A stretch of DNA of 63,963 nt, filler included, from Atractiella rhizophila (lineage: Eukaryota): assembly GCA_021432655.1 (NCBI GenBank). It is 4 parts of 4 records of this genome, joined end to end, with 100 filler letters (N's around TTAATTAATTAA, not from the genome) between each part and the next. Parts side by side here need not be neighbours in the genome. Positions count along the whole stretch, not along the records: positions 1 to 20,716 come from MU271807.1; 3 more parts are not named here. One strand, given 5' to 3'. Each line of letters starts with the position of its first letter. The stretch's first letter is position 1. A program made the position numbers and the translations under genes. Below, piece after piece: positions 2,343-63,963 of this stretch. The notes below the pieces were generated by a model. It was given only the letters and a program-made list of their open reading frames with translations, was not told the origin of the DNA and did no database searches.

Positions 2343-4195
2343 GGTCGTTTCAGGGGGCTGCCGCTGAAATAAATTAACGGTCCAGACGCGCAAGAATTGA
2401 CGCACGTGCATGAATACTCTCAACAATTCCTCCCTTCGTTGTGTTTAGAATAAGAGAATCTGTGGTATCATTATTGGATTCGGCTGGATCAGTGGTGCGT
2501 ATTAAATAGTGATCAATAATATGAATTCATTCACAACGTGGTATCTAATAAATTCTCGCATAGTCGTTTCCAATATTTCACCTCATATCCTGGATTTATT
2601 ACTCCGATAATGCTAATGCACCTTCTAGCCACCCAGCATCCTCAACGCGTTCTTCAGCTCCTTCCTCGCAGTCTCAAAATCCTCATAATCCAGTGCGCTA
2701 ATCGCCCACTTCGCATGCTTCTGAACCTTAGCTATCTCCATAGGCGTCATTTCCGTCACTAAAGGGCCCGTTTCCTCCTGTACATGCTGAACATTCCTTT
2801 GTTGTACCAGAGATGGTCCATCGGTTTTCGGGGGAAGCGTAGGCGCTCGTTGAGGGATCGGGGCAGCAGGTGCAGGGTGTACATAGGTTGGGTAGGACGG
2901 GCGAACCGGGGGTGGTGAAACAGGGGGAGGACTGGAATATGCCTTTTAAATCTTCGTGATAACGATCTCGAATCCTTTTCAGTACATCATCCCACATTCC
3001 GTCAATTGGACCTTACCTTCTTCCATCAGCACAGGGGAAGAAGCAGAGTGGCCGGAAAAACGGACCTTGTATATCAGCCTGGGATATAGGTGGGTCTTCA
3101 TCGTCGTATTCTGAGTTCCCTTTAGGACTAGCAAAGGAAGGGTAGTGGACTCTCTGAGGAAACGAAAAGACACACCCCATCCTCGTCGCCATCCCGATCC
3201 CGCTATCCATCTCATCCCAAAGCTCATCCTCTTCATCCTCCCACTCGTCCTCTTCATCATACTCCATTCTTCTCTTGTCCTTCGTGGTGCTCAATTGCTG
3301 AAGAGGTGAAGATGTGACCGCGTAGACATTCTCAGATACACCACCTTCACACACAGTCCATTTCAAGAATTCGTGCAACAGAATACTACCACGCACGAGA
3401 TATGCCTCTGGAATGTTCGAAATTAATACCTGAGAGGCCAGAAACATTTTTTCGCGTCTTCAACGCGCTTTCTCCGTCACTAAGCAGTCCACGCGACTTT
3501 TGCAGGTTCCTCAGCTTCATGACGGTTGTGGACTGATCTTCGAGAACTTTTGAATGACGCCCATTTCCACGGTACTTGGAAAGACGAAGTGCTGAGAGGT
3601 TCTCCATGGTCGTTTCAGGGGGCTGCCGCTGAAATAAATTAACGGTCCAGACGCGCAAGAATTGACGCACGTGCATGAATACTCTCAACAATTCCTCCCT
3701 TCGTTGTGTTTAGAATAAGAGAATCTGTGGTATCATTATTGGATTCGGCTGGATCAGTGGTGCGTATTAAATAGTGATCAATAATATGAATTCATTCACA
3801 ACGTGGTATCTAATAAATTCTCGCATAGTCGTTTCCTACATTTCACCTCATATCCTGGATTTATTACTCCGATAATGCTAATGCACCTTCTAACCACCCA
3901 ACATCCTCAACGCGTTCTTCAGCTCTTTCCTCGCAGTCTCAAAATCCTCATAATCCAGTGCGCTAATCGCCCACTTCGCATGCTTCTGAACCTTAGCTAT
4001 CTCCATAGGCGTCATTTCCGTCACCAAAGGCCCCGTTTCCTCCTGTACGTGCTGAACATTCCTTTGTTGTACCAGAGATGGTCCAGCGGTTTTCGGGGGG
4101 AGCGTAGGGGCTCGTTGAAGGATCGGGGCAGCAGGTGCAGGGTGTACATAGGTTGGGTAGGACGGGCGAACCGGGGGTGGTGAAACAGGGGGAGG
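1667..4195. repeat. Tandem duplication, 1265-bp period (1667-2930 / 2932-4195)
   Basis: Identical ORFs at offset 1265 (1748-2182 vs 3013-3447); single non-matching A at junction 2931. Confidence 0.95.
2625..2930 (-). pseudogene. VTA1: Duplicated 3' fragment of VTA1
   Basis: Near-identical to 3890-4195 (Vta1 C-terminal domain) with scattered substitutions; lacks the rest of the gene. Confidence 0.8.
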
Positions 4196-6955: not shown

Positions 6956-9900
6956 CTACATTTCATGAGCCTGAAGACGCTCGCCCCTCGCATTCAAACC
7001 GAACAGATACGCCACTTGTCTCGCCGACATTTTGCCCAGCTTTGTACCTTTCCCCTCCCCAAGACTATGATCAGTTAGAGCTTGCTTCTGTTCTTGGATA
7101 GCGAGCATCCGCTGTTCTACAGTGTTGGCGATTTGGGGTCGGTGAATAAACACCTCTCGCTCCTGTCCAATGCCTGAAAGCAGATCTCATCAATCGACAG
7201 CAATGTTGGGCAAACCGGGGCTTACGATGGACCCGATCAAACGCTTGCGCTTCTGTGGCTGGAGACCAGGCAAAATCAAGGGAGATGACGCGATTCGCTC
7301 GACGAAGATTGAGTCCAACCCCGCCTGCGATGAGAAACTTAAAACACCAGAAAGAACCAAGCGAGTTTTCCTTACCAGCTTTTAAGGACATGAGCATTAT
7401 CATTACCCTCTTGGATTCTTGAAACTTGAGAACCGCAGCATCCCTTTCCTTCGCATCCATCGAACCAATATATTGGACATGTGCCATGTTGTGCTCATCC
7501 AAGTATTGAGAGACTAGCTCCAAGTTTTGGACAAATTGAGAAATAATGATGACCTTCTGATCGGGAAAGCGTTCACTCCAATCTAGCAGGTGAGACATCA
7601 TCCACTGCATCTATTTTTCGAGCATGAACAGCTACCTAATCAAGAGGAGAAGAAACCTACTTTGGTAGATGGCATGAACTTCGAGACAGGTACCTCCTCA
7701 ACGGTCTCTTCGTCATCATCTTTATCCTGTTCCATGAAGGCAGCTACATCGAAGCAGCGATCTTTCGAAATCTTCTGTCTACACATCGGACAATCGTTCT
7801 CATTTGGATTATATCCCTCCTTAGGATTCGCGAAATAGGTGTCGATACAGATGTTACAGAACTAGGAGAGATCAGCTAGAAATCAGCTTGGCTAAGGAAG
7901 TGGCATACCACATGTTTGCACTCCGTCACCTTTGCCAGGATCATCATGTCTGCACAAATCTGTTTGCAATCAGAAGATGACACAAGGGAACGACATCAAG
8001 CTCAAAACTCACGGGACACTCATCAGCGATTTCTTCTTCTGCAGCGTCGTTCTTTTCCGCCTTTTTCTTTGCCAGATGCTCCTTGTAATCATCGACCCAT
8101 TGCTGACCCAAGATCCTCGTAGCAGATGCAAGGTCGTTTCCATCATCTTTGCTGTTATTCTCAACCGCGCTTCCATTCACTTGGACCTAAGGTACCATCT
8201 TAGCATTCATCTCAGCTGAAGATGTTGCTCACCAGAGAAGGATGACAACACAGCTGCCGTAGCCTAAGCAGTAAGACTAAAACGTGTGCGTAATTCTTCA
8301 GGAGAGTTCCACGCTGTAATACTCTCAATCGGAGGAACAACCAAAATGAAGTTAAAAACGGCATACCTTCATGAACTTGTTGATCCTCTGCTGTGCGCGA
8401 GCTTCATAAGCATCGTAAATCTCCCTCTCCTCTGGGGAGAACTCAAGTGTCTCGTTAACGATTGTTTTAGATGGCAGATCTTCAAGAATCGGGACACCGT
8501 CGATCTTGCTGTCCTTCGCCCTACGGATCATGACGTCTTTGAGGATCGCTTGAAGACGGTTTGCAGCTTCTGCGACCCTCTTGCTGTTCTTTGCTTTCGA
8601 TGGCTTGACTAAGAAACGATGAGATCATTAAGCGTATCTTGCAAGAGAACCACGAGTGCATACCGACGTGATTGTTGAACTCAGCCCAGTCGCTCCACGG
8701 AGTGACTCTCAGGAATCTGAGATAAGAGTAGCAATCGGCCTAAAATCAATGAAAAAATGTAAAACACAAATCTCAGTCGCACGAACCAGATAATTAGTGA
8801 TCGGCGTTCCTTTTCAAGGTCATTGAGAGTCAGCGACAGTGGACAAACGATGAGAAGACATACCAGTCAACACCCATCGATGCTCAGCTTCAAGCTGAAA
8901 ACACGCTCGCGCCACCTTGGTGCCTAATGGGCAACTATTTGTTAGTTCAGGAGAAGCGAACGAGGGAGGACTGCATACTCCGAGTCCTGATTGCTTGAGC
9001 CTCATCGAGAATAACGCGGAACCATTCGATGTCAAACAGCCCCTTTCCCTCCTTGATTTCTTTGCCCTGGTCGAGCTTCTTCTTTCGTTCCAGTTCATCA
9101 TCGGGAGCGTCCAAGCAAAGTGTATGACTGTAGACCTCGTCAATAACTGTCCACTGGTGACCAATGTAAAGGAAAACATACTAGGTAGTTAAGACGATAT
9201 CGTATTGTTTTATTCTATTAGTTATTGGTTTCTCGCCTAGCTCGGAATGGTAGATTAAAATGTTGAAGTAGTTTCTCGCAGTGTTATTTGTCTGTCGTTT
9301 TGTTCACTTATTGAGATGGAAGGTATCAGGAGACGTACAATTTCTCGCCTCCATTGCTCCAATAATGCCAGAGGAGCAACAATCAGCGTTTGATTAGGTC
9401 CACCAGTAGGAGGGTTGAGGAGGATAGTAGCGAGGGATTGTATAGTCTATGGTCACTTCAGCATTACATCGTCGCAGACAGGAGGAGGCAACACACCTTC
9501 CCCAACCCCATGGCATCACACATCATACCTCCCGTTCCATTCCTCCGCCAATCCTTCTCTTTCTGCAGCATAAAATCCACACCCACAATCTGGTGCGGCA
9601 TGAGCTTGAGCGATGGCGTATGTTGGAGGACTGAAGATCTATGCGCAAGACCCAATCTGACGCGAGCTTCTTCCACCGACGCGGAACCTTCAAAGTTATC
9701 CGTCTCTATCGCTTTCACCACCATCTTCTTGAGCTCCACATCCGTCGGCACCGGTCCAACTCCAACTCCAACTCCTCCGCCATAAACACTGTTCCTATCT
9801 ACATCCTCATCTCTGATTGTAAATCCATTCATTGATGCGGTGAAATGCGGTTGCAGCTGTTGGCGAAAGAGCTCGTTCAAGTCGAACGCACCAGGAATGT

Positions 9901-10956
9901 GAAAAGCGGTCCCGAAAGGATCATAATCTGGTTGCTGGGGAATTGGAGGGATACGGACGCCAGAACCAGACGGAACAGCGTATGCGTTATTCCTATCAAA
10001 ATCCTCCCTCGCCGGTGGTGCTTCCTCCTCAACCTCCTCCGGTGGTAGAAGGGCAACGAGGTCGTTAGCGTGTGCCCCCAACTCCTGCACCAGCGCATTC
10101 CTCCTCTCTCGAATCTCCAACCATTCTTTCCTGAACCGATTGTACTGCGAATCGTTCGTGCTCACTCCGGAACGTCCTTGGGAGAAGATATCTACGAGCT
10201 CCCTCGCGTCTAGTTCCCGAGGAATGAGGTGTTCTAATTCTATCCTCTTGTTCTCGATTTGGGACGGGCTAAGATGGGAAGTGGTGGGAGGATGGAGGCG
10301 AGGACGCTTGTTGGAAGATGAGCTAGGACCGATGGAAGAGTCGAAGTCCACTAGAGAGTGGCGTTTATGACCAGTTACACCGCTATCGGAAGAACTGGGT
10401 GAGGAGGTAAGGTCGATGTAGCAGGGGTAACCTAAGGGAAGGTGGGTAGGTTGTACTTGACAATGACAGTATAATACGCACCTTGTCCGGCACTTGAAGT
10501 GTACTGCTCAGGTCTAAGCTGATCTTGTCTTGCCGGGAACAGCTGTTATCCCTCCACCACTCAACACTTGCCCATATGACTTATCGCAAGAGAACTCACG
10601 CCATGCACCATCCCCAAATGAAGTTGAAAGGCTTCTAAGCTGCCCACTCCATCACTGACACCACCGTCCGGTACGTCTCTTCTCCTCAATGCGCTGAAAG
10701 ACGTAAAACAATCCAAGCACACAATCTCTCCAAGTCGATATTCTCCCGATCCAAACTCAAAGAGAAAGTTGGACGCGTTTGGATACAACGCCAAGTGGTC
10801 CCTAGGAATCATGTCGATGAACGTGAGGTTCCAACCAAGGAGAACGTACCGTAGAATGGCGAGGTAAGGCGCGGGTAAAGGTGTGGTAAAGTCACTTTCG
10901 TCTTTGGAAAGTGTGCGTAACGCGATACTTCGCAGGTAGTGATCTGGTATGCTCAT
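6956..10956 (-). CDS. SNF2-family helicase with RING finger (Rad5/Rad16/Uls1-Ris1 group), multi-exon
   Basis: LMPHQIVGV, CDAMGLGK (Walker A), LIVAPLALLEQW, YDIVLTTY, HRWVLTG, ECPV..RING cysteines, KVIIISQF, MSLKAG, GVGLNL, AQAFDRVHR; N-terminal CxxC..H..H exon at 10561-10956. Confidence 0.9.
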
Positions 10957-11584
10957 GTTGGCTGTGGAGAGTGAGGACTACTGGAACTCCTTAAATAAAT
11001 AACTGGAGGCAGAAGGGCAAAAGACTTGGACAGCGTCACGTGGTCGTGTTCAAGATTCGCGTCTGTCGCGCATCGCGTTCATCGCGTTCAGCGTTTAACT
11101 CTCTCCTCTGGAGGCCACGGGCATGTCATTATCCCAAATTATGCATGCCAGATTATGCTGAACTTGAACTCACTCCTGAACGTTGGACTTGACCTTGAGA
11201 TGAACGTTTGCATGGAGATTGACATCATGAACAACACGACTGATCTTGTCAATACGCGTCTGCTCGTTTTGTTTACTCGCTTTACTTCTGTTTGGTGGCT
11301 GATTTGAATTTGATGGGTGATGGCTGGACGTTTAAAACCTCCCCATCTTAATGGCAGGATAAAGTCACCTCAAATCTGGCGTTGAGGACGAATGTTTGGA
11401 AACGGTCGACGCTTGTGCCCACCGAATTAACGACGTGGAACAGCGTTCATTAACGTTCATTCGAGACCGGAAGTATGAAGAGGGTGGTCGGCGAAGAAAT
11501 GAGCCACAGTAGAGTGCGAAGTGGAACGTAGTGTACATCGTTGAAATCGGCATTACAATCCAGAAAAGAATAGTTACTTCAACC

Positions 11585-11879
11585 TCAACTGTTCCTCTCC
11601 CCTTCCTCTTCCTTCCTTATTCGTTCTCTGGCGACCATCAACGCCTTTCCCAGAAGATTACTTCCCCATCCTTCCCTCTTTCCCTCCTTCCAGTCCTTCA
11701 ACCCTTTCTTCTCTCCATATCCGATTCCCCAAATCCTATCCCTCGGACTCGCCTTCAATGACCCCTAATCAGCTCATTCTCACCTGATCGAAAGAAAGAG
11801 AAGCACCTCGATAAGCTCCCGATCTCCAGTTGCCAACAGCTTCTCCTTCATAGCTGCCGTCGATGTATACTTCCAATAG
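11585..11879 (-). pseudogene. C-terminal half of NADAR (YbiA-like) gene, separated from its N-terminal half
   Basis: YWKYTSTAAMKEKLLATGDRELIE|intron|ASPRDRIWGIG...WGSNLLGKALMVARERI, the conserved NADAR C-terminal motifs; stop at 11585-11587. Confidence 0.9.
11859..11879. repeat. 21-bp direct repeat copy 1 (GTCGATGTATACTTCCAATAG); copy 2 at 15747-15767
   Basis: Exact 21-bp match at both ends of the segment that interrupts the NADAR gene. Confidence 0.95.
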
Positions 11880-13892
11880 AGAAAGACGACAGCTTGCCAT
11901 TCCAGCGTCGAGAATTTGGAGTTGATCCTTGATGCCACATCTGTACATTGCGCATGAATCTCATTCATTTCCGTCGTTGCTAGTCCCACTTGGAAGAGTA
12001 CAACCTATTCATTTGGGCCTTAAGCCGCGTTAGGGGAAAGAGGATGCGGTATACCTTGTTGTGCCACTCTGGATGTTCCTCCAAGAACCTCTCAAAGGCC
12101 ATCAACTTATGCCTTACTCCCTTGACATAATCCATCTTATCCCTCCCGACGATGATTTTCTGTCCGGCATAACGTTCTTTCAATATCTCGGTCCACTCCG
12201 TCACCTCTGGCTCTCGTCTACCGCACATAGATCAGTTGATGAAGAGACGGAGGAGACAAAAGGGGAGCAGAGATACGACGAACCTCTTCACGTTCAAGGC
12301 GTCAACGTCTATCCCAATGGGGAAGACTCCAACGTTACAGAACCCTCTCTTGGTGCTCACACCTCGGGGGGTCGTTTCGTACTGCAAGATGCGCATGACC
12401 GTCCTCCTAAAGTGTCTTGCAAAATTGAACCTATCCCAACGAACCATGGCATCAACGTGAGTTTCACTACTTGTTGCACTCAGTCCGGGATGGCAGGGGA
12501 AGACATACGTCTGAAAGCCTATCAGGTCTGCGCCTAACATTCCCTCCAACAACTGTTCCCTGGTAGCAAGGCACCTGACCGTTTCGCTGCTGGGGAAGGC
12601 AGTGTGGACGAAGAGGCTGATGCAAGCTAGTGGGAGCTTTTCTCTAATCATGAGAGGAACAAGAAGGAGATGATAGTCCGAGATGAGGATGACGTCCCCC
12701 TCTTGATATTGGGCTACGATCGCGTCCGCGACAGCTTGGTTTAGTTCGCGGTAGGGGAGGAAGGAGGCAGAGTCGTAAGATTTGTAAGAGGTGAAATCGG
12801 GCATGTAGTGGAAGGTAGGCCAAAGAACCTATCCATCACAGCCAAACAGAGCAACGAACAGCCAAAAAACAAACCACGAGCGAACAGTTAAATCATGAAA
12901 ATCAGTCTCCTGACGGTCTGCAGAGTGAGAAGTTGCTGCACCTGTTTGCAAAACCCTTCATAAGCTTCCACGACCACCTTCCTCTCCATCCAAACTGGTA
13001 TCTCCTCCCCTTCCCTCTCCCTCTCCTCTCCAAGCACCCTCTCCGCCTCCTTCTTCTCCTCCTCATCCACCTCATCCATGGCCACACCCGGAAAGCCAAT
13101 CCAAACCGGCTTCCAGCTCCGTGTTGAGGAGATGGCATGCAGAAGTCCGCCGTTTGCGTTCGGGGAGGGTACAACGGCGAAGGGAAAGTCAATGTGGGGT
13201 GAGGATAGTTGAGATTGGGAGGATTTGGGTTTTATCTCAGGTTGGGATTGGGATCGAGGTTGGGGTTGGGGTTGTTCCTCATCCGCAATAGTGGGCAGCT
13301 TCAGAGACTTTCTAACCTCGTCCGCCTCCGCTTGCACCTTCCTAGCTGCGCTGGAAAGAACTCCTTTTAGAGAAACGTTGTTGAGTGTGTTGAGACTCGT
13401 TGCCGTGTTCGATCGGGAGAGAGGATGAGGATGGGGAGAGATGGGAGAGAGTGGACCGGCCGTTGGTGTGGTTGGTGAGAAGAAGGGATTCGTAGCGTCT
13501 GCTGGAGTTGGTGTTTGCCCATATGGCGTTTGAGCCCTTTCCTATCCAACGACAACGGCACAGTCGCACAAGAGTGAATATTAACCATGAGAAGGAAGGC
13601 GCAAACAAAAGAGCTCGTTTAGAAATTTACGTTGTAAAGAAGGAGGACGTACGGTAAGATCTTCCACGATACTCAAGCTGGCTAGGTTGGGTTTGCTGCC
13701 ACTACTGGTCATGGAGGACGTGATGGGTGACTTTGGAGATAAAGGAGGATTGACAGGGCCATCGTCAAATACGGCTCGCTCTTGCTCTGGACTATAATTG
13801 AGGTTCAAAGGGGTGGTACTGCCATACGCTTGGTCGAATGAGAGGGTGTGGGGGAGGAAGAGAGTGCCTATAAGGACGCGTCGTTGAGCCAT
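11880..13892 (-). pseudogene. TPS2: 5' part of trehalose-6-phosphate synthase/phosphatase (GT20, Tps2-type), truncated before the end of GT20 and the phosphatase domain; in frame with NADAR C-half
   Basis: MAQRRVLIGTLFLPHT start; YEGFCKQVLWPTFHY, ILISDYHLLLVP, FVHTAFPSSE, GADLIGFQT, FPIGID, IVGRDKMDYVKG; ends at WQAVVFL. Tps2 versus Tps3/Tsl1 assignment is tentative. Confidence 0.8.
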
Positions 13893-15329
13893 TCTTAGCC
13901 TTTGCAATGAATCTCGTTTGATAAGGGAGCTGGCCAGATATAAACGTTATATAGACGACGTGGGAGTGCTGGCAAATGTGACGTTGAGCCTGAGCAGAAT
14001 ATTGGATGTTGGATGATGGATTTGGATGGATGTCGATTGTCGATGAGATGAGATCATTGAATGATGACAGTTGATGCCCATCGCTAGTCACCAACAACAC
14101 CACAAACGAATCGAATTGCAGGCTTAGTGCTACTACTGGGTGAAGCGGAACGTGTATCTCGCCAAAGGGAGGAGTTAGACGTTAAGGCTAGGCTGTAATT
14201 GCGCCGAGGAAGCAAAGGTACGTCTTCTTATGATATGTCGATTTCTGGGTTGGAAGGAGGGAAGACGCGTATCTTTGACCTGGGGCTCTTGAGCGAGCCT
14301 TTGTATTGTGCCGAGCAACGCGTACCTCTAGGTTGCTCGCTCCTTGCCAAGTACACGCGATGTGCACATCAAGTTTATGCCCATTCATCCCAGGTAGGAA
14401 TAAGCTTGAATGGTCTCTTACAGAGGGTGCATTCAACTTGATACATGATGGTCAATATTAAAGGTAACGAAAACCTTCGGTGTGCTTGTGGGACAACTTT
14501 GGTTGTGTGCCATCTTCGTGTGGCAACGTGTTATTGGCAGTTTCGTGGCCAATTGCTCAGCACGTCCCACTTCGCTGCAACGGTCACGAGTCTTTATCTC
14601 TGTTCTCTAGTTGGACTTGTAAAGGATCAAGTCTAATCTGTTTCCAAGATGGGTTTCATAAAGGAATTCCCAAGAATACTTGATATGAGCTCACGATAGA
14701 AGGAATGTTCCTCGCACATTTCCAGATTCCCTGAATCGGTTTCAGGATTGTTGCTGTCATTTCACTCCTGTTTAAATAGGAGCGGATTTTGATGAACTGC
14801 TCTCAAATGGAGAAGGAGATCTCGCAATCCCTGACTCCAATAGGAGGCTTTACAACGCGTCAGAGTGCTTTAGATAACTATTGTTCAAGTCTCTCTGAAG
14901 ATCTTGAGCGCTGCTCCGATAGTACTTCCCAAGCGCCGTCGCGACAGTGAGAATGACTTGCCCACTGCTTACAGTAAGGCGTTATTGCGATGCGTAATAA
15001 ATGGGTAATAAGGAAGACTGTTAGCTGTAGAAGCACGGAAGAATAGTTGCCTTGATCGCTGTATAATAATACTTTCTAATTAAGGTAATCACGGTTTCTT
15101 CGTCTTGGAATGAGACGTGAGGATATACTGTATCCTCCTTTTCGTTAGGAAACGCTCTTGGCTGTGGGACCAAGCATCAGGCAATTTCCTGACCTGGTAA
15201 CTATGCCTATCAAAGCTCATTTTAGAGTAAAATGTGCATTTACTCATTTCCTCCGTGAACTGCCTTGCGCCGCTCACATTTTTGCGCAAAATAAACTGAT
15301 TCCACCTTTTATTCGATAGTACATTGAAC

Positions 15330-15746
15330 ATGTATCACCTTCAACTCGATCTCCTGTATCCTTACCCACCTTCGACGAACGGTGCCTCCCGTTCCCTCTC
15401 CCTCCTTCCTCCTCACCTTCATTCCCAATACGTGCAATACCTACAAACCACTTCAATCACCGTTCTCCCAACGTCTGAAGACATCTGGAACCTGTCTTCA
15501 ATTGGACCTAGCAACGGGAAGGGGAAAGGACGACCGTCCGAAGAAGACGAGGCTCTACAAATGACAGGACTGGTGGAAGATGAACTGGACTACCGCCTCT
15601 CTCCGCTCTCCCTCGATTTTGTCTCCAACCCTACACTCGAGTCGGCGGCAGAACAGATCGCAGGGTCCGACTACCGCTTAACACGCACCAATTTTGGGTC
15701 TTCGGAAGGAGCTGTAGTGGGAATGCGCCTCCCATCCCCATCAGCA
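15330..15746 (+). pseudogene. 5' fragment of a gene divergent from TPS2, possibly BRAP2/Etp1-like RING protein N-terminus
   Basis: ATG-initiated ORF MYHLQLDLLY...DYRLSPLSLDFV that runs into the 21-bp repeat and stops; family resemblance is weak and from memory. Confidence 0.4.
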
Positions 15747-16160
15747 GTCGATGTATACTTCCAATAGTTCCCCTCAGCCACGATCCCACTTCTCTCTTCC
15801 GCCCATTTCGCCTCTACGAAATTCGACACCAGTCTTCCTAACCTTCTCTGTTCCGCTGGGTCGCTCGTTTTCAATATCTGCTCGGCCATGTCCATATCTT
15901 CGAAAAGGACGGCTTTGGAGTACATCATGTACCTATGGGTTTCAATTCAATTTGTTTTCTCATCAGCGCTCAGAAGCGGTGAGAGAAGGAAGGACGAACT
16001 GTTCTGCCGTCCCAAAGTCCTTCTTCTCAACCTCATTTGTCGCGGTATCCGACGAAGTAGAAGGAAATGAAGGAATGGGAGCTGCGAAGGTGTGTTCGAA
16101 CCATTGCGAGAAATGGCCGTGAGGTACTTCATGAGGTCTCCAGAAAAATACGGGCTCCAT
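15747..16160 (-). pseudogene. N-terminal half of NADAR (YbiA-like) gene
   Basis: MEPVFFW..HFSQWF..FGTAEQ|intron|YMMYSKAVLFED..ILKTSDPAEQRRLGRLVSNF..W..GNYWKY. Confidence 0.9.
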
Positions 16161-16546
16161 CTTGATCTCTTCTTGAATAAGAAAAGAGGCTCTCTTGAAG
16201 ATATAAAATCTTGACGATATAATTTTATATACTGAGCGGGGTCAAGTCATCTTTGATGCACCGCCTAGAGTCCCACTGGCAGCCTGAAGATTCGACGTTG
16301 GAAACATTTGGAACGTGGGTTCAAAACGGGCGTTGGTCTAGCTGTGAGCGAGTCATGTCCACTATTATTATCTCTCCCGCTCCACCGTCAGCTCAATGAA
16401 GATGACGGGATCTAAGCTTGAATCCACACCTCAGGGACATACAATCATTTCTCAAAGTCTAGATGTCCACGTTCAGCTTTGTCAATGAGTGAGGGTTACA
16501 TTAAGCTATATGAGTACACTATCCGCTGATCGGCCTGAGCTGAAAT

Positions 16547-17660
16547 TCACATCTCCTCCTCCCCTTCTTCAACTCCTTCCTCTCTCTCTTTCTTCACAAA
16601 CAGCTCCTCCCTCCCCACTTCCGCTTTCACCTCCTCCCATACTCTCTCCACCTCCCTCACTGCCCACTCGCCCGTTCCTGATACGCCGACCAGTTCCTTC
16701 GGATCAGGATACGACCTCACTGGTGTTATCTTTCTCGTCAATGTGTCATGGTGGTGGTGAGAAAACATGAGAGGAGAAGGTGGAAGGATGCTGTAGAAGG
16801 TTGAGAAGAGAGGAGTGAGATCGGACGGTAAAAGGCGCGTGAGGAATGGGGAGAGGATGGATTGTGAGTTTTGATCCGTGCGGGTTGGATGGTAGGGATG
16901 TTCAAGGTATATTACGTCTGTCAAAATCTCGTCAGACAAAAGGCTAGAGAAAGAGAGAAAGGGAGAAAAGCACATACACTCTCCCGCTGGTGTGGCATAA
17001 TTGCTTTGTCCCTCTACGAGCGCTGTGCATGCGAACCCATTCTCCTCTTCAGGAGCAAAAACAACCATTCTCGAATCTTCATCTTTCTCACTTGCAGTCC
17101 AAAAAGGTCGATCAATAATGACAATCCCTCTTGCCATTCTCACCTCCTCTTCTTTCCCTTCCTCCTCCTCCTCTTTAGCAAGCGAGGACTGCAAAAGTTC
17201 TTCGTCCCCAACGATCCTCCCCACCGTCACTTTCACCTTCTCCCTTTCCGCCTCCGCGCCAACCATTCCTGGCAGTTCAACCTCTACTTCCACCTTCCCC
17301 TCTCTGTCGTCACCACCGATTGTCCACCGCGCTTCCAAAACTTGTACTGCTCCTTGAACAGCAGCAGAGCGAGAAAAACCTTCGACTAGCTCCCCCATCC
17401 CACCATAGTTTCCGACAAGGAAGGGAGAGGGAATGGAACCGTATACTCCTATTGAGGTCAGATTGTGGTGTAGCTTGAGAAGGGAAGTGAGAAGGGGCTC
17501 TGTTGTGGTGACCTTAGAATATTGAAAGAAATGGGAAGAGGAAACGCACCTGAGGAGGAGAAGTTGAGGGTTGCTGCGTAGGCGAGGGATTGGGAGAGGG
17601 AGGGAGAGAGGGAGAAGGCGGTTTGGAGGAAGGAGAGGAAAGTTGTGGTTTCATGTCCTG
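16547..17660 (-). CDS. MRS6: Rab escort protein / Rab GGTase component A (GDI family), 3' part; 5' part not visible before gap
   Basis: FLSFLQTAFSLS..LAYA..|..SIGVYG..SPFLVGNYGGMGELVEGFSRSAAVQGAVQVL; RGIVIID, MVVFAP, GEWAVREVERVW. Confidence 0.75.
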
Positions 17661-17827
17661 AATACAGATGGAGGTAAATTAACGGGTGACCTTTGCAAAC
17701 TTGGAAGCGAAACTAGAAGTGAAGGACAACGAGGATTCTATTGCATATCAATATGAACTGGACACACAACTTGTTCACCCACACATAGAATGTGGCAACA
17801 TGNNNNNNNNNNNNNNNNNNNNNNNNN

Positions 17828-20716: not shown

Positions 20717-20760
20717 NNNNNNNNNNNNNNNNNNNNNNNNNNNNNNNNNNNNNNNNNNNN

Positions 20761-20772
20761 TTAATTAATTAA
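20761..20772. other. Scaffold gap linker TTAATTAATTAA (also at 43745 and 61947)
   Basis: Embedded in N runs; stops in all frames; assembly marker. Confidence 0.95.
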
Positions 20773-21328
20773 NNNNNNNNNNNNNNNNNNNNNNNNNNNN
20801 NNNNNNNNNNNNNNNNTAATACGCTATAGCGCTACCTGAAGGTTCTTTCGGTGCGCAACAACGTTCTGTTTTCTTCTATTTCGTTCATAGTAAGCAGAAT
20901 GCGCTGAGAAAAGCCCTCACACCGTGTTCGTGTTCGCGACGAGGATTCGTGCACGCACCCGCGTTCCACAAGCACCATCGGAAACTCTTTATCACCTTCA
21001 TTCCTCCATTTCATTCTCACATCCACTGTGAGCAATCCTTCGACAATTGGCATTTTGACAGTCAGTTATTGGAAATGTCGACGAGCAAGTTGAACGAGAG
21101 ACCGTAATGGGCTGATGACAGTCCCCCCATGTATTACGTGGGCTCTCAACTGAAAAGGATGGTCAACTTCTATACCCGAATATCCATCCTCTGACTTTTG
21201 CACCTCTCATATATGTTTGAGAGGTTGTAAAATCAGATTCAGGCAAACGATGTTCTAGACAAAATAAAATGTGTCATCACAATAGTTGAGCACATGGTGC
21301 CTGCAGGCAGGTGAAGTTGATGGACGAC

Positions 21329-22336: not shown

Positions 22337-22571
22337 GCACGTTTAATTTCTGGTGCTGCTGAAGTTGTACTAATTGCTTCCTTTAGATTCGGATGTTGAT
22401 CAAGCAACCTTAATTTCTCTGTTTCTTCGATGTAATATCTAATAATTGAACACACGAAGCCAAAGCGTCTGAATGATGAATGACAATGGTATCTGTAATT
22501 GCCACAGAAAATATTTCAACCGGAAAATACAGAGGATTGGGAAATCCAGGATGCTGGAGAACACTGCACTG

Positions 22572-22684
22572 CACACTCTGCTTTACCACGCACACTCTGC
22601 TTTACCACGCACACTCTGCTTTACCACGCACACTCTGCTTTACCACGCACACTCTGCTTTATCACGCACACTCTGCTTTACCAC
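22572..22684. repeat. Minisatellite, ~6 x 19 bp (CACACTCTGCTTTACCACG)
   Basis: Head-to-tail units with no spacers, one internal substitution. Confidence 0.95.

Positions 22685-26046: not shown

Positions 26047-26085
<39 letters not shown>
26047..26085 (+). repeat. Poly(A) run (~39 nt)
   Basis: Seen directly in sequence. Confidence 0.95.
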
Positions 26086-38143: not shown

Positions 38144-38481
38144 TGTTGTTGGAAATGGAAATGTGAATCGGGAAGCAGACACGACAGACTGGAACACACC
38201 ACACTAACTTATGCATGTTTTGTTTATTGCGGATTTATCTTTGCATTTCACTCCTCCGCTCTGCAGCACTATTAAAGCTTTCTTCCTTTCTTATTCGTTT
38301 CCTTTTCCCCACCACTTTCCGTTTATCTTACTCATATCGTTTTGTACGTGGCTGGGGAATTTAGGTACGCATATCTATTGTAATGACGAACCACTTTCCG
38401 TTTATCTTACTCATATCGTTTTGTACGTGGCTGGGGAATTTAGCTCCCTTGGTTAGCCAAATTCTCACTTGGTAGCGAGAG
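38144..38481 (+). mobile_element. 5' LTR (ends ..CTCA at 38467) and PBS TGGTAGCGAGAG (38470-38481) of copia 2
   Basis: CA end, 2-nt spacer, TGGTAGCG PBS typical of initiator tRNA-Met priming, gag ATG at 38518; LTR start uncertain; internal 54-bp direct repeat. Confidence 0.7.
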
Positions 38482-43700: not shown

Positions 43701-44590
43701 NNNNNNNNNNNNNNNNNNNNNNNNNNNNNNNNNNNNNNNNNNNNTTAATTAATTAANNNNNNNNNNNNNNNNNNNNNNNNNNNNNNNNNNNNNNNNNNNN
43801 GAAGTAAATACTAGATATTGATATTGTCAAGAGATCCAGAGTTGATGATAGTTGGTGCAGGCTACAAAGTCGGAAGCAAAAACACCCGTCGACATCCCAC
43901 ATTCGCCATCTATCCACCCAACTACTACCTATTTCCTAAAATCTTATTCATTCATCAATAATCACATACATTCACGAGTTTCCCTTATTCTCGCCTTTAG
44001 AAGTCAAAAAATCAAATGCTGTGCTCCCACCTGTGTGTGGTATGGAGTCTGTCTCGAAGGTGATCTTGGAATCATTAGGATACTTGCACTTCGATTTAGA
44101 CCCCTGAGGAATTCTCCACCTTTGCTATCGTTGTCGTGTAATTTCTCGTGCATAGTTTTGTCGTGCACAACTGTTGAAGTAGTCACAACAAACGCTGGCA
44201 CAACTTTCCTTTACAGCTTTAATTTACGCTCCCTTCAAGTTTCTGAGAGTGAATGGAGGGCACTTTTGTTTGCGTGAGGTCTAGATCGGCAATTTTCGTT
44301 TACAAACTACAAGATCCTGCGAGCTCAAGTTTTGCCCGACAACATTTGTAGTCTTCACCTTAGCACTTGCAAATTCTCATGCAAAATGAATTGCCAGTGT
44401 TCATCGCTACCCTTTACTCGGGGTCCTGCTCCTTCCATGACAGCGTGCTCGGCTCGTCCCTGCATGAAACAAGTAAACATCAGTGAATTGTAGAGGAGTG
44501 GTGAACTGCTTTCCACAATACCGTCCTTTTGTCTTCTGTCTTCCCTATAGGCCGCATACTAACCCTCTGAGGTCAGTTGCTAAATCCTTC

Positions 44591-50253: not shown

Positions 50254-51050
50254 GATTTAAAATATGCCAAACGATCCGCCTGTCTTCACGACACCTTCTT
50301 CCTTTAGATCTACACGTCGACATAGGACAGCTCTTTGCGTTTATTACTACGCACCTCCAACCTGACGAAGGTGTCTGTCCTGAAGTCAAAGCTCTTCTCC
50401 AACCAATGTCGAACACCTCTTATGCAAAGTGAAGCGTTAAGCAATGGGATGACCATCGACAAACCAAAAAAAGACCAACATGCCATCCGCAACTTATCGC
50501 CCACCCATTCTGCAGGAATGTAAAGAATGTAATCGTCAGCATTCACTGATTCCGAGCTGATTCTAAACAACACATTTACAGCAATAACCGCTAGTGCTTT
50601 TCTTTTAAGTTTCGCTTTCGAACATACAACGGCTGCTTTTGGGGATAAATCAGAGCCCCAATTCTATAAGTCGCTGTTGCGCTCTCTAATATCGTCTTTC
50701 AAATTCCTGTCTATGCAAACCAAATTCAAGCAGTTTAATGAAAATAACATTCATTTCCCACCGTTCGATCGTTTGCAGCCTTACACATCTAGCTCTATAT
50801 TTCAAAGTTGGCATAACAGACAGACTCGACATGGAAATGTGCACAAACGCGCAGGATGGACTTTAACCCGTAATTTGGCTAGCTCCTGTGGCGATAGATA
50901 TCCCATGCATATTGCCATCGCAACAACGATATGACAAAACAAATGCAGCTCATTAATGTTCAACGTTCAATTTCCACTATAGGCAGGTCGGGGACTGGCG
51001 CACCTGCGCCTTTACGATTTAAAATATGCCAAACGATCCGCCTGTCTTCA
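50254..51050. repeat. 35-bp perfect direct repeat (50254-50288 and 51016-51050) flanking 727 bp
   Basis: GATTTAAAATATGCCAAACGATCCGCCTGTCTTCA occurs twice. Confidence 0.92.
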
Positions 51051-52849: not shown

Positions 52850-55090
52850 ATGGCGAACAGGAAGCTTAACTCCCTCTCGGCTCCTCAGCCTCCCTTACCT
52901 CTCTCCACCATGCACGATCCATGGGGCACAGATCCCATCTACGTCCCTCCACTTCCATATGTCAGTGGAAATGGCACTGGATTGACATCTACCTCCTCAC
53001 CTTCTACGAGCATGTCCGCACGCGAACTTGCAAGGGTGTTATCGCTCTGCTTCCAAGCATTCGCATCACGGACTGTCCCCGCATCTATCCCCTCTGCATC
53101 AGGAACAACAGCTAAAGATAAAGAAGAAGGTAGTGTGGAAGAGAGAGAGAAGAAAGTGGATTCGAAAGACAAAGAGGTGATATCGCTGTTGGTCGAAGCT
53201 TATGAAGGTCTTTTACCTCTCCTACCACCGTCCTCCCTCTCCGGCCTCCATCTGCCACTGCATCTCAGTCACGGGTGCAGTTTATCTCCCCCTTATTCTC
53301 CCACTCATCCCCATTCCTTCCGTCCCGGTTGTCAAAACCCACAGACCCGCCCCTCTTCGTCTTCCGGCACGGGCAGTCAACCCCCAATCTTCCGTCTCCC
53401 TCCTGAACTCCTCCTTCGCATCTTCCTCCATCTCAGAGCGTCGGCTGAGTCACCTCCTTCCCCTTCTTCCGACGCACATTGGCCGTACACACCCTCACGG
53501 TCTCTCTTACAAATGGATCTCCATACCCTTGCTCTGGTCTGTCGAACTTGGGAACCGGCTGCGAGACAGGCTGCATATGCTGTTGTGTCTTTGAGAAAAA
53601 AGGAGCAAATGGATAAATTGTACTCTACAATCGAACAGAGCAGCAATGACGGCGATGCCTCCGAAAAGGGAAAAGGACAGGGAGGAAGGAGGATTGCCGC
53701 TTGGATACGAGAAATTGACGTCAAAGTCTCGACCGCGACGAGGTCGATGAGGAGGTTGAGGGGAGGAAACGCCCCTATCAGTACCACTACGGGACCGTTC
53801 GCATGGATGCATACGGGAGGAGGGGGACATCCCTTCTACTCCTCATCTACCGTCCCCCTCGCGTCCTCCGATACGTGCGGGACATCCCTTGGGAGGTTGT
53901 TGAGCGCCTGTCCGAACGTCGCCAGTGTGGAAGTGAGCATTTCGAACGGGGGCAGCTCGTACGGTTATTCGATCGGGGCAGAGTTCCTGGAGGCGGGGTT
54001 ACTGGAGAGTCTGTGTACTATGCGAGGATTGAGGAGTGTAACTTGGAGACAGAGCCTGGATTTCGGTGATCTCGTCGAAATCTTACGCGAAGTAAAAACG
54101 ATCGAAAACCTCTCCCTGCCCGCAGGTGTGACAAACTTGTCGTCACCTCCCCCTGCACCGTCTGTCACTGCCATTCCAGCTCCTGGTGTTGGAATTGGCG
54201 CAGCAGTGAGCTCAGTACCAGAAGAGCCAGAGCATCAAGCACGCCTGAAGTCTTTTCAGTGCTCTAATTGGGACTTTCCTTCCATCACTCCTGCCCAGCT
54301 TTGCTGGATCCTCCGCCCTGCTGTCCACACTATAAAAACACTCGACCTCGGTAGTTGGAGCGGAAATGGCGCCTTTGGGCTGAACGGTGCGCCGCAAGGT
54401 GGCGGAAGGAGTCCTCCATGGGCTACAGCGGAAGTTGCAGACTTGCTCGTTCAGATGAAGGCGGTGGAAAGGGTCGCGTTGAGGGATTTACATGGTCTGG
54501 GTGTGGTCCGTACCCATTCCTACCCCTCTTCCCTCATGCTGTCCATGCAATCGTAGATATTGAATCAAATGATGGCGCAGGTGGATCAGAGTCTTCGGAA
54601 CGACCCTCACAACGGATACCTCGACCACTCACTCTCTCACTTCTCCAATCTCACCGAACTCGCAATCGACTGGTCTTACACAGGCCCAGAGTTCTTGACC
54701 TCCCTCGCCCCTTCAATCGAATCCCTCCTTCTCTTCGGAGCACCGACCAGCACGAACGCCGATCCTAAGGACCTCCTTGCACTCGTGGAGCGCAAAAATT
54801 CGAAACTCACCACACTCGTGTTGAGTGGGTGGCCGGTCGGTGTCGCAGGAAGTTGGAATAGCAAAGAGATCAGGGCACTGAGGTATGTGTACCCTCTGTA
54901 TTTTGTCCTTAGGGACGAACGAAGGACGTGTGCTAAATTGCGCGTTGTAGGAGCGTGTGCCATCGAAAAGGTTGCCTGTTCGCTTTCACAGGCGGTTCAT
55001 AACCAGTTTTGGCATGTCTCCTGGAAAGACGATGTGATGTTGCTTGATTTGCAAGAAGTAGGCGGTGGACGTGAAAGCAGTTTGTTGTGA
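52850..55090 (+). CDS. F-box / LRR(RNI)-like protein, 2 introns near 3' end
   Basis: IFRLPPELLLRIF..LALVCRTW..AA F-box; LSACPNV, LRSV, IKTLDL, FSNLTELAI repeats; start codon uncertain (52850 or 52910). Confidence 0.8.
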
Positions 55091-56755
55091 TTCAATTCTG
55101 GTTGTGGTCGCAAATCTGTCCATAATCACGGTCTCTCTTACAAATGGATCTCCATACCCTTGCTCTGGTCTGTCGAACTTGGGAACCGGCTGCGAGACAG
55201 GCTGCATATGCTGTTGTGTCTTTGAGAAAAAAGGAGCAAATGGATAAACTGTACTCTACAATCGAACAGAGCAGCAATGACGGCGATGCCTCCGAAAAGG
55301 GAAAAGGACAGGGAGGAAGGAGGATTGCCGCTTGGATACGAGAAATTGACGTCAAAGTCTCGACCGCGACGAGGTCGATGAGGAGGTTGAGGGGAGGAAA
55401 CGCCCCTATCAGTACCACTACGGGACCATTCGCATGGATGCATACGGGAGGAGGGGGACATCCCTTCTACTCCTCATCTACCGTCCCCCTCGCGTCCTCC
55501 GATACGTGCGGGACATCCCTTGGGAGGTTGTTGAGCGCCTGTCCGAACGTCGCCAGTGTGGAAGTGAGCATTTCGAACGGGGGCAGCTCGTACGGTTATT
55601 CGATCGGGGCAGAGTTCCTGGAGGCGGGGTTACTGGAGAGTCTGTGTACTATGCGAGGATTGAGGAGTGTAACTTGGAGACAGAGCCTGGATTTCGGTGA
55701 TCTCGTCGAAATCTTACGCGAAGTAAAAACGATCGAAAACCTCTCCCTGCCCGCAGGTGTGACAAACTTGTCGTCACCTCCCCCTGCACCGTCTGTCACT
55801 GCCATTCCAGCTCCTGGTGTTGGAATTGGCGCAGCAGTGAGCTCAGTACCAGAAGAGCCAGAGCATCAAGCACGCCTGAAGTCTTTTCAGTGCTCTAATT
55901 GGGACTTTCCTTCCATCACTCCTGCCCAGCTTTGCTGGATCCTCCGCCCTGCTGTCCACACTATAAAAACACTCGACCTCGGTAGTTGGAGCGGAAATGG
56001 CGCCTTTGGGCTGAACGGTGCGCCGCAAGGTGGCGGAAGGAGTCCTCCATGGGCTACAGCGGAAGTTGCAGACTTGCTCGTTCAGATGAAGGCGGTGGAA
56101 AGGGTCGCGTTGAGGGATTTACATGGTCTGGGTGTGGTCCGTACCCATTCCTACCCCTCTTCCCTCATGCTGTCCATGCAATCGTAGATATTGAATCAAA
56201 TGATGGCGCAGGTGGATCAGAGTCTTCGGAACGACCCTCACAACGGATACCTCGACCACTCACTCTCTCACTTCTCCAATCTCACCGAACTCGCAATCGA
56301 CTGGTCTTACACAGGCCCAGAGTTCTTGACCTCCCTCGCCCCTTCAATCGAATCCCTCCTTCTCTTCGGAGCACCGACCAGCACGAACGCCGATCCTAAG
56401 GACCTCCTTGCACTCGTGGAGCGCAAAAATTCGAAACTCACCACACTCGTGTTGAGTGGGTGGCCGGTCGGTGTCGCAGGAAGTTGGAATAGCAAAGAGA
56501 TCAGGGCACTGAGGTATGTGTACCCTCTCTATTTTGTCCTTAGGGACGAACGAAGGACGTATGCTAAATTGCGCGTTGTAGGAGCGTGTGCCATCGAAAA
56601 GGTTGCCTGTTCGCTTTCACAGGCGGTTCATAACCAGTTTTGGCATGTCTCCTGGAAAGACGATGTGATGTTGCTTGATTTGCAAGAAGTAGGCGGTGGA
56701 CGTGAAAGCAGTTTGTTGTGATTCAATTCTGGTTGTGGTCGCAAATCTGTCCATA
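53495..56755. repeat. Tandem duplication, 1631-bp period (53495-55124 / 55126-56755), giving a 5'-truncated second F-box copy
   Basis: ORFs repeat at offset 1631; about 4 substitutions seen; single extra A at junction 55125. Confidence 0.95.
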
Positions 56756-56937
56756 TTAACGGGGGCCAAGCCACAAAATGCTCGTATTGGCGCTCTCAGG
56801 TCAGTATCCGAGCCAGTTTTTAGTCAGTTGTTGCTTGCATGACAGATATGGGATCTTTGAGGCGTTCATTTTCGTCCGCTGTATGTACTACTAGCGACTG
56901 TGTAGGAAAGGAGGAATCAAGTTCAAAACATCCAATT

Positions 56938-61704: not shown

Positions 61705-63963
61705 TGTCAGCGCACAGATATCCGGCAGACTTCACACAGCTTCGCGTCCCGTTCATCATCTCATTGCAAAGAGAGGATTGAGATATTTAGTACTCGGTGA
61801 CTTTTAAGGCTCATGAGAAGCATAGCAATCGTTTATCCTTGAATGTGTTATTATGTCAGTTTCGATCTTCTGCATCGAAAAGCTTTCAATTTCTGCAGCA
61901 GANNNNNNNNNNNNNNNNNNNNNNNNNNNNNNNNNNNNNNNNNNNNTTAATTAATTAANNNNNNNNNNNNNNNNNNNNNNNNNNNNNNNNNNNNNNNNNN
62001 NNCATGAATCACTGATCGCAATGTGGGCCGCCGATAGTTAGGCAGTTACGCCGGTTGTCTATGCTCACTCGTCTCAACAGACTCAGATGTGTCTGCCAGT
62101 GTCGTGATGGCACCGCGGCACACAACCACTTTGAACAACTACCAGCACAAGCGATGTTATAACTTGACTGCTTAACGAACTAACGAACACATTGTACCGG
62201 CCATCATAAGATTTCATACCCGTCCACACAACAACATCAAACCTTCAACATTTTGGACGCGATTTCGTCTAGGACGCTTCTCAATTACGGGTTCACAGGA
62301 ATGACCTGGGCATCAGGGCAGCAGTTTGCAGTAACACGGTGGGGTTTCACTCAGGATAGCTTGTGAGTCCGCTTTACTTTACCATCTTAATCATTGTTCT
62401 TACGAATCCCCCTATTAGGATGGCCCCTATTTATCTATCACATTCTGGAGGAACAGTGGCGCAGATGTTCTGCAAGGATATCATGTCCCTCGTCGCGATA
62501 GACTGCATTAAACTCCTAGGCCACAAATGCTTTCCATGCTTGATCAGGCAAGGAAGTACCAAGAATGAGTAAGATATCTCTCGCAAACTCATTCCAAACT
62601 AAACTCGGTTGCTGCCTTCCTCCCTACTATCGTTTCACACAATATACAACCAATTAGAGGTAGGAAGTAGACTGGACGACCTTGATAGACTATGGGTCGA
62701 GGATTCAAAACAAGCTGGTCAAACATCCGTTTACGGTATGGAAACGCGAGATGGCACACTAGATTTTTCCCGGAAGTCACTCAACTTCTTGTTGACGAAA
62801 TGTGCGAGTGCTTTCCTGAGGCTCGAGTCTTGTGTGGGATTATGGAAGGACGGTAAGCTCATGCTGTTTATGTATATCCCTCACCAGTCGAACAGGGACA
62901 TCAACTTTGATAGTCGTAACGTCGGGATTGCTGTGAGCATGTCGAATCTGGCTCCGTAGATGGGCAGGTACGCCGCCTAAGCGGTGTTTGGCATAATATC
63001 ATTTGCCGACGTTGGGTTTTCATTTCATTTAACATGGCTATTTTGTGGATGCAAGATTTGGCATGGCAGGTGTGTGCAAAGTTCTGTGACTGTTCTACTC
63101 TGAATTCTAAATGGTTTCATAGGCGGATTTCCCCACGAAGCGTCAGTATTAAACACAAATGCTCACGCAACCAACAATCTACCCCAGATCCATCAAGCAA
63201 AAACCAAACCGCCCACGCTGGTACTATCTTCCGACTTCCATCTCCCGACTTCATACATTGAACCGCTCAAGGACCTTAGACTTACTTCCACGATCGGACA
63301 AGTAGCTATCAATCAAGCGGCTCTCAAACCTTTAGGACCAATGCTATTGGAGTTAAGTCAAGCAACCTGTCTAGTCGGCGTTGATGGAAAGCAAAGTGGC
63401 AGGACGTCGACAAGGTCAAAATGCTGCAAACGTTGCTTGCAGCAAAAGGTCATATGTCCATATATTCACCTTCTAGACTCTATTCTGACCCTTCTGGCAC
63501 AGGCACGATCCTATTAAAGCGAGTCTGAATCCTCCTGATACCATGTATGTGCTCTCCGAGACTCGAGATGGGATTAACACATATGTACAAAGATACAGCT
63601 GGAAAGCGACTGGCTTGAAGTGGTTCTTTCCCGCACCTCCCAAAGCAGCCGTTCTGCTTCAGTCGGGGTGTGATGCTTTTGGACCTCTGGTTTGCAGCTC
63701 CATTTACCACCGAGTCCCGTCATACCCTGTTCAGAGGCTTCTACGGAGGCAAAGCAGTGTATCGAAGCCACAATCCATCCCGCAAACTACTGCCATTGCT
63801 TAACGCCTTCAAGTCTATCCCAGCCATCAGGATTGGTTCACGCTACCCCAATATTTGCCAATAGATGTCTACAACTGCACCGCTTCTCGTCCAAAATCTT
63901 CAACCGGGATTTTGGCTTCGGACTGAGATATGTTCTGTATTGAGGTTGGGCCATAACGCCAAG

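Follow-up and report, generated by a model that had tools for sequence, protein, structure and literature searches.

In a 63963-base stretch of the genome of Atractiella rhizophila (GenBank assembly GCA_021432655.1; hereafter the window), a NADAR gene (PF08719) that runs on the minus strand from 16160 to 11585 is broken in two by 3867 bp of DNA. The gene, which we label a housekeeping-type gene in fungi, is interrupted within its coding sequence, and an exact 21-bp direct repeat flanks the interruption. The intervening DNA is an internal piece of another chromosomal locus, comprising the 5′ parts of two divergent genes and the region between them. Relatives of the sequenced strain carry NADAR without the insert and the donor locus without a break. 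We conclude, with a probability of roughly 0.68, that this is a real, derived and lineage-specific templated insertion (a dispersed duplication), most likely produced by microhomology-primed template switching. The anatomy of the locus, the empty site and donor in the relatives and the absence of transposable-element or retroposition hallmarks are direct observations, whereas the route by which the insert arrived is read from its junctions and its flanking repeat.

The two halves of NADAR divide a single domain profile between them. The pieces of the N-terminal half match PF08719 positions 1–44 and 41–102 (exon 2, E = 3e-17), and those of the C-terminal half match positions 96/98–121 and 121–163 (E = 8e-12). 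Two of the four pieces, at 63.8 and 46.1 bits, each pass the family's gathering score of 35.1 by themselves. The halves share profile positions of about 96–102, which correspond to the seven residues YWKYTST, and this overlap indicates that the seven duplicated residues are native NADAR sequence. Among NADAR relatives in metagenome contigs (58 loci, the best 59% identical, which at this distance are informative on gene architecture only), those at 59% and 52% identity run uninterrupted through the motif into the C-terminal half.

The 21-mer that makes up the flanking repeat occurs exactly twice in the window, both times on the minus strand, with 0 occurrences expected by chance and no third match in the window even at up to three mismatches; at least two matches were found in none of 100 shuffles. 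The copies are spaced 3888 bp, with 3867 bp between them, and BLAST lengthens the repeat to 24 bp with one mismatch. When all exact direct repeats of at least 16 bp in the window were compared, the 21-bp pair was the sole isolated pair of that length; all others fall within tandem duplications (two of them), a minisatellite or a poly(A) run, or are short repeats of local extent. A metagenome scan for the 21-mer returned 0 loci.

The comparison with relatives is based on public contigs aligned to positions 7800–17800, from four (X1–X4, of three samples) of the five runs that contain part of this sequence, with sampled-word shares of 0.68, 0.65, 0.44 and 0.05, respectively. X1 and X2 are DNA contigs from one sample, organism A. 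X3 (organism B) and X4 (organism C) are RNA contigs, as judged from their many joints of 50–113 nt with GT..AG-type ends. NADAR is uninterrupted in four of four runs, two of DNA and two of spliced RNA. Contigs of 458 nt in X1 and 379 nt in X2 join 11858 to 15747, skipping 3888 bases, with 21 letters that fit on either side; X3 and X4 join 11855 to 15744, which shows the empty site in the message. Because the relatives carry the empty site, the insertion is the derived, lineage-specific state. The RNA contigs also back both NADAR introns: that of the N-terminal half, with GT..AG ends, by a joint from 15930 to 15998 in X3 and X4 (cut +2), and that of the C-terminal half by a joint from 11751 to 11806 in X3 (cut +1).

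The relatives also retain the donor. On the side of the TPS2-class gene, an X1 contig of 2536 nt matches 11879–12777 with 2 differences and has 1637 nt more before 11879 that do not resemble the window, and contigs of X2 and X3 behave likewise. On the side of the divergent gene, X1 and X2 contigs match 15007–15745 and extend by about 252 nt, and an X3 RNA contig of 966 nt matches 15318–15745 and extends by about 510 nt without a splice. Read by eye in the 30-letter ends of this run-on sequence, both reading frames continue; past 11879 the TPS2-class frame is then followed by an intron in the DNA contigs or by the next exon in the RNA contigs. As the relatives' contigs extend past both ends of the insert, unspliced in RNA, both captured genes are cut mid-exon. 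In the relatives both donor genes are ordinary expressed genes, and the insert is an internal slice of their locus.

Contigs of X1 and X2 pass unbroken through the empty site and across each boundary of the donor, at depths that resemble those of neighbouring contigs (213.7 and 233.4 in X1; 366.9 and 354.8 in X2). This speaks for a single copy of the segment in organism A and against a filled allele there, contig depth being only a weak guide to copy number. At 9738 the window has A and X1 has C and T on two contigs, so that the window represents a third allele; this and the sampled-word shares set all four runs apart from the source strain. The sample of organism A shows two alleles on separate contigs at 8278, 8601 and 9737–9809 (with depths of, for example, 77.2 and 110.9), and looks heterozygous or mixed. 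Behind 11668, one contig each of X1, X2 and X3 has a 4-base insertion polymorphism, ACTG; the site lies within the region of the last NADAR exon, and in coding sequence an indel of this size would cause a frameshift.

The contents of the insert, listed with the other features of the locus in Table 1, consist of two gene starts and the sequence between them. In the first captured gene, the match to PF00982 (GT20) reaches profile position 361 of 473 and stops there, from which it follows that the gene is cut within the GT20 domain. Most of the full-length homologues listed combine PF00982 with PF02358 (trehalose-phosphatase), and the phosphatase part of the captured gene would fall beyond the cut point. 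The best protein-database match is 65% identical. On this sequence evidence the gene is probably of the TPS2 class, and either TPS2 proper or a TSL1/TPS3-type subunit would fit. The X3 RNA-contig depth is very low across 14146–15147 of the captured intergenic region, and the open reading frames (ORFs) in 13893–15329 match no Pfam family above threshold, nor does this region have an Rfam match. The divergent gene has no homologue among 592 candidates and no Pfam family above threshold. No second copy of the insert was found by BLAST in the window, where only the 24-bp repeat pair aligned.

A sequence-only reading of this stretch had described a NADAR gene split around a 21-bp repeat with copies 3888 bp apart, and the exact pair, the shuffles and the overlapping PF08719 halves bear that description out. 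Its core proposal, an ectopic and duplicative insertion of ordinary chromosome at the level of DNA, is upheld by the donor and by the empty NADAR allele, which was sought in the relatives and is present in all of them. It had also taken the insert for the 5′ part of TPS2, an intergenic region and a divergent gene, both genes being cut mid-exon; the donor contigs agree with this structure, and the gene name is to be relaxed to TPS2-class.

Table 1. Features of the interrupted NADAR locus, in positions of the window.
Feature	Position	Strand	Remarks
NADAR N-terminal half	15747..16160	-	exon 1, 16160-16000; intron, 15999-15933; exon 2, 15932-15747
NADAR C-terminal half	11585..11879	-	exon, 11879-11807; intron, 11806-11753; final exon with the stop codon, 11752-11585
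Left repeat copy	11859..11879	-	exact 21-mer; base 11879 also present in the donor (1-nt microhomology)
Right repeat copy	15747..15767	-	target-site duplication; native NADAR sequence, encodes YWKYTST
Insert	11880..15746		internal piece of a single donor locus, copied; homology to the relatives' donor from 11879/11880 to 15745
TPS2-class (GT20) gene, 5′ part	11880..13892	-	ATG at 13892; six exons, five retained introns; cut after codon 532
Introns of the TPS2-class gene	13652-13542, 12941-12829, 12508-12431, 12283-12218, 12054-12005	-	GT..AG; all spliced in X3 RNA contigs
Divergent intergenic/promoter region	13893..15329		1.4 kb, between the two captured gene starts
Divergent gene, 5′ fragment	15330..15746	+	ORF of 139 codons; 6 more codons into antisense NADAR, then stop
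Predicted fusion ORF	11585..13892	-	532 TPS2-class and 79 NADAR C-terminal codons in frame; 611 codons with 6 introns removed

Both junctions are nearly flush. At the left one, donor and NADAR share 1 nt, base 11879; at the right one, where the donor homology ends at 15745, the microhomology amounts to 0–3 nt at 15744–15746. Passages of PMC11724301 give 0–20 nt of microhomology for the junctions of templated insertions, a range within which 1 nt and 0–3 nt fall, and passages of PMC3638133 describe joins of −1 to +1 bp as flush and typical of end joining. Base 15746, an A on the plus strand, differs both from the donor of organism A, which has T, and from the window's copy in the C-terminal half, in which 11858 is C. 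It does match organisms B and C, whose NADAR allele is taken to be A because the X3 and X4 joint lies three bases earlier, with two ambiguous letters only; the NADAR of organism A has C. In the divergent gene, A at 15746 would fall on a third codon position and be synonymous. Its origin may lie in polymorphism of the donor, in addition without a template or in a duplication of 22–24 bp whose two copies differ in allele.

In the mechanism that we favour, an internal piece of 3867 bp from a chromosomal locus present in single copy would have been copied as DNA into the NADAR coding sequence. The copying could have taken place by template switching during replication or break repair, in the manner of break-induced replication mediated by microhomology (MMBIR) or fork stalling and template switching (FoSTeS), or by repair synthesis followed by second-end capture. 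A nascent strand copying NADAR would have left its template just past the YWKYTST codons, copied 3.87 kb at the donor and re-entered NADAR 21 bp behind the point of exit. Re-entry behind the exit would create a 21-bp duplication without any staggered cut, and we prefer template switching because it explains the duplication without recourse to an unusual 21-nt stagger. No exon in either NADAR half or in the captured part has lost its open frame, and the splice sites are intact, which indicates that the event is young. We infer that the filled form exists as written in the source strain, that the donor has been kept there and that template switching was the route.

Several points weigh against this interpretation. 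The filled junctions are given by the assembly alone, and no contig listed for the relatives spans 11879/11880 or 15746/15747. An intact donor within the source genome is assumed, as it is seen in the relatives only. Base 15746 fits neither the donor of organism A nor the window's own copy in the C-terminal half, and the end of the repeat coincides precisely with a polymorphic site of the relatives, for which the interpretation offers no explanation. Priming cannot be argued from 1 nt of microhomology, and the junctions are also compatible with capture by non-homologous end joining (NHEJ). Furthermore, this is a single event with two junctions, and 1 nt of homology does not discriminate for or against MMBIR/FoSTeS-like template switching (PMC3638133).

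The alternative that deserves most attention, which we nevertheless consider unlikely, is end-joining capture, in which a free double-stranded donor fragment would have been ligated by NHEJ into a break in NADAR whose nicks lay 21 nt apart and were filled in. The fragment would have been a broken or over-replicated piece of chromosome, or a linearised extrachromosomal circle. The near-flush junctions, of 1 nt and 0–3 nt, with one possibly untemplated base at 15746, suit this explanation, which according to passages of PMC3638133 is the usual reading of such joins, and passages of PMC11724301 document the capture of distant genomic DNA at breaks in yeast. However, a stagger of 21 nt is not usual for a spontaneous break, the target bears no sign of a nuclease site, and the yeast insertions described in PMC12214859, at about 10–1000 bp, fall below 3.87 kb. 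Sequence alone cannot separate end-joining capture from template switching, nor can it tell the staggered break of the sequence-only reading from a template switch that re-enters behind its exit. A variant of template switching itself, between homologues in a diploid or meiotic stage, would apply if the duplication were 22–24 bp long with different alleles: the strand would leave one homologue and re-enter the other, so that the copies carry C (11858) and A (15746). We regard this variant as rather doubtful. If true, it would, together with the two young tandem duplications in the window described below, point to an unusually switch-prone genome that makes promoter-bearing chimeric genes, of which the in-frame TPS2–NADAR fusion would be one.

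An artefact of assembly, in which the donor piece was misplaced between two NADAR contigs that overlap by 21 bases, appears improbable. It would account for filled junctions that lack independent contig support and for a repeat whose last position borders on a polymorphism, as expected of contigs broken at a bubble, and there is a 25-N gap at 17803–17827, 1.6 kb away. Against this, both junctions are continuous sequence without N, and the piece is collinear with independent contigs and has precise mid-exon ends in unique sequence, the right orientation and intact splice sites. For the artefact to arise, a single gene would have to be joined wrongly twice, independently and at points separated by 21 bp, to both ends of one contiguous 3.87-kb donor stretch, a pattern that we cannot trace to the working of an assembler, and on the right side the piece shares only GC plus one base with NADAR, which provides no k−1 overlap. 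A loose end of the X3 and X4 contigs at 17659, beside the 25-N gap, was considered as an artefact and rejected, as it marks a splice acceptor, with the partner exon beyond the aligned stretch.

Least credible of all is that an element carried the piece, either as a Pack-type transposon loaded with host DNA or through target-primed reverse transcription of an unspliced read-through RNA by a long interspersed nuclear element (LINE). LINE target-primed reverse transcription typically yields target-site duplications (TSDs) of 7–20 bp. The 21-bp duplication is in the size range of TSDs of LINEs and short interspersed nuclear elements, and passages of PMC3638133 mention 10–20 bp of apparent homology. 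The insert itself speaks against an element. It has no Rfam match and no transposase domain in Pfam. Across its terminal 150 nt, the best inverted or direct alignments score 14–15 (14 for the inverted alignment alone), where shuffles average 14.6 and reach 24 at most, which leaves no terminal inverted repeat (TIR) or long terminal repeat (LTR); runs of A or T do not exceed 3–4 in the 100 nt at each end, with no poly(A) or A-rich end; and CCCTGTG termini are absent from 10500–17500. The piece keeps each of its five introns and includes a divergent promoter in which X3 RNA contigs are scarce, and in the relatives the donor ends fall inside continuing exons rather than at element boundaries. The introns, the promoter, the missing tail and termini, and ends that are not donor boundaries effectively exclude retroposition and transposition. 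The sequence-only reading had likewise ruled out retroposition from the retained introns, each of which is spliced in the X3 RNA contigs, and had seen no transposase, TIR, LTR or poly(A). These statements agree with the shuffle-level terminal alignments, the short A/T runs and the Pfam result, and the search for element termini, which it had named as a refuting observation, revealed no TIR or CCCTGTG at the locus and, in organism A, depth like that of the neighbours, which is a weak guide.

The insertion has consequences for all three genes. The reading frame of the N-terminal half leaves NADAR sequence at 15747, runs 24 codons into the insert and stops, for 140 codons in total. The predicted product, 116 NADAR residues with a 24-residue foreign tail, lacks the conserved D-x-x-W-G-x-G part of the domain, and by its sequence NADAR is presumably inactivated in this lineage. 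On the other side of the insert, conceptual splicing from the window coordinates joins the TPS2-class codons in frame to those of the NADAR C-terminus, and one ORF piece matches both PF00982 and PF08719. This predicted fusion ORF sits behind the captured TPS2 promoter region; the in-frame match is a one-in-three chance. Of the divergent gene, the insertion has left a truncated, short copy.

The event resembles templated insertions that arise through MMBIR, FoSTeS or synthesis plus end joining, in which, according to passages of PMC11724301, a segment is duplicated to a distant site with 0–20 nt of microhomology and without element-encoded ends. It differs from an induced break in a yeast mutant or a cancer genome in being a natural variant in a wild basidiomycete-type fungus, in its clean 21-bp target duplication and in having captured two gene starts together with the whole divergent promoter between them. 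Insertions found at HO breaks in dna2, rad27 and RPA mutants of S. cerevisiae, as described in PMC11724301 and PMC12214859, are similar in that unrelated chromosomal DNA is inserted with little or no homology; according to PMC12214859 they are mostly about 10–1000 bp, and their reported sources are fragile regions, whereas the insert reported here is 3867 bp. Pack-type transposons (Pack-MULE/Pack-CACTA-like) likewise place a host gene fragment at an ectopic site with a flanking direct duplication. Unlike them, the insert has neither TIRs nor shared termini; the cargo makes up all of it, and it begins and ends at points that lie mid-exon in the donor. LINE-mediated retrocopies and class 1 templated-sequence insertions have a flanking duplication of similar length; unlike them, the insert keeps its introns and promoter and has no poly(A) tail. 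Our literature search found no work on Atractiella genome structure and, for dispersed duplications with a TSD, only work on LINEs and the Ty1 integrase. Templated insertions are already known as a kind of event, and this one opens no new mechanism or long-standing question.

Other repeats in the window were recorded alongside the locus. A young tandem duplication at 1667–2930 and 2932–4195 has a 1265-bp unit and 98.9% identity (14 mismatches in 1264), and another, at 53495–55131 and 55126–56762, has a period of 1631 bp and 99.6% identity (6 mismatches in 1637). The aligned copies of the latter, at 53495–56762, overlap by 6 bp at the joint, which resembles junction microhomology. The two duplications suggest that the genome is prone to small duplications. 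A 35-bp exact direct repeat at 50254–50288 and 51016–51050, with copies 762 bp apart, could flank another small insertion, and a 54-bp exact direct repeat lies at 38311–38364 and 38390–38443, with copies 79 bp apart. A 30-bp exact repeat (17885 and 17955) is found just past the run of 25 N at 17803–17827. The remaining N runs are pairs of 44 and 44 with 12 bases between them, at 20717–20816, 43701–43800 and 61903–62002. A minisatellite at 22567–22684 has about 6 copies of a 19-bp unit, and a run of 38 A on the plus strand at 26047–26084 is possibly the tail of a retroposed sequence.

The locus provides a natural, kilobase-scale templated insertion in a fungus, resolved to the base pair, whereas most known cases come from cancer genomes and from repair mutants of yeast, and all three reference states, the filled site, the empty site and the donor, are recoverable. 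It also holds a warning for annotation, as the locus will be called a truncated NADAR gene and an odd 'TPS2-like' protein. Finally, it illustrates how a single accident of repair can disable one gene while giving rise to a chimeric ORF that is in frame and equipped with a promoter.

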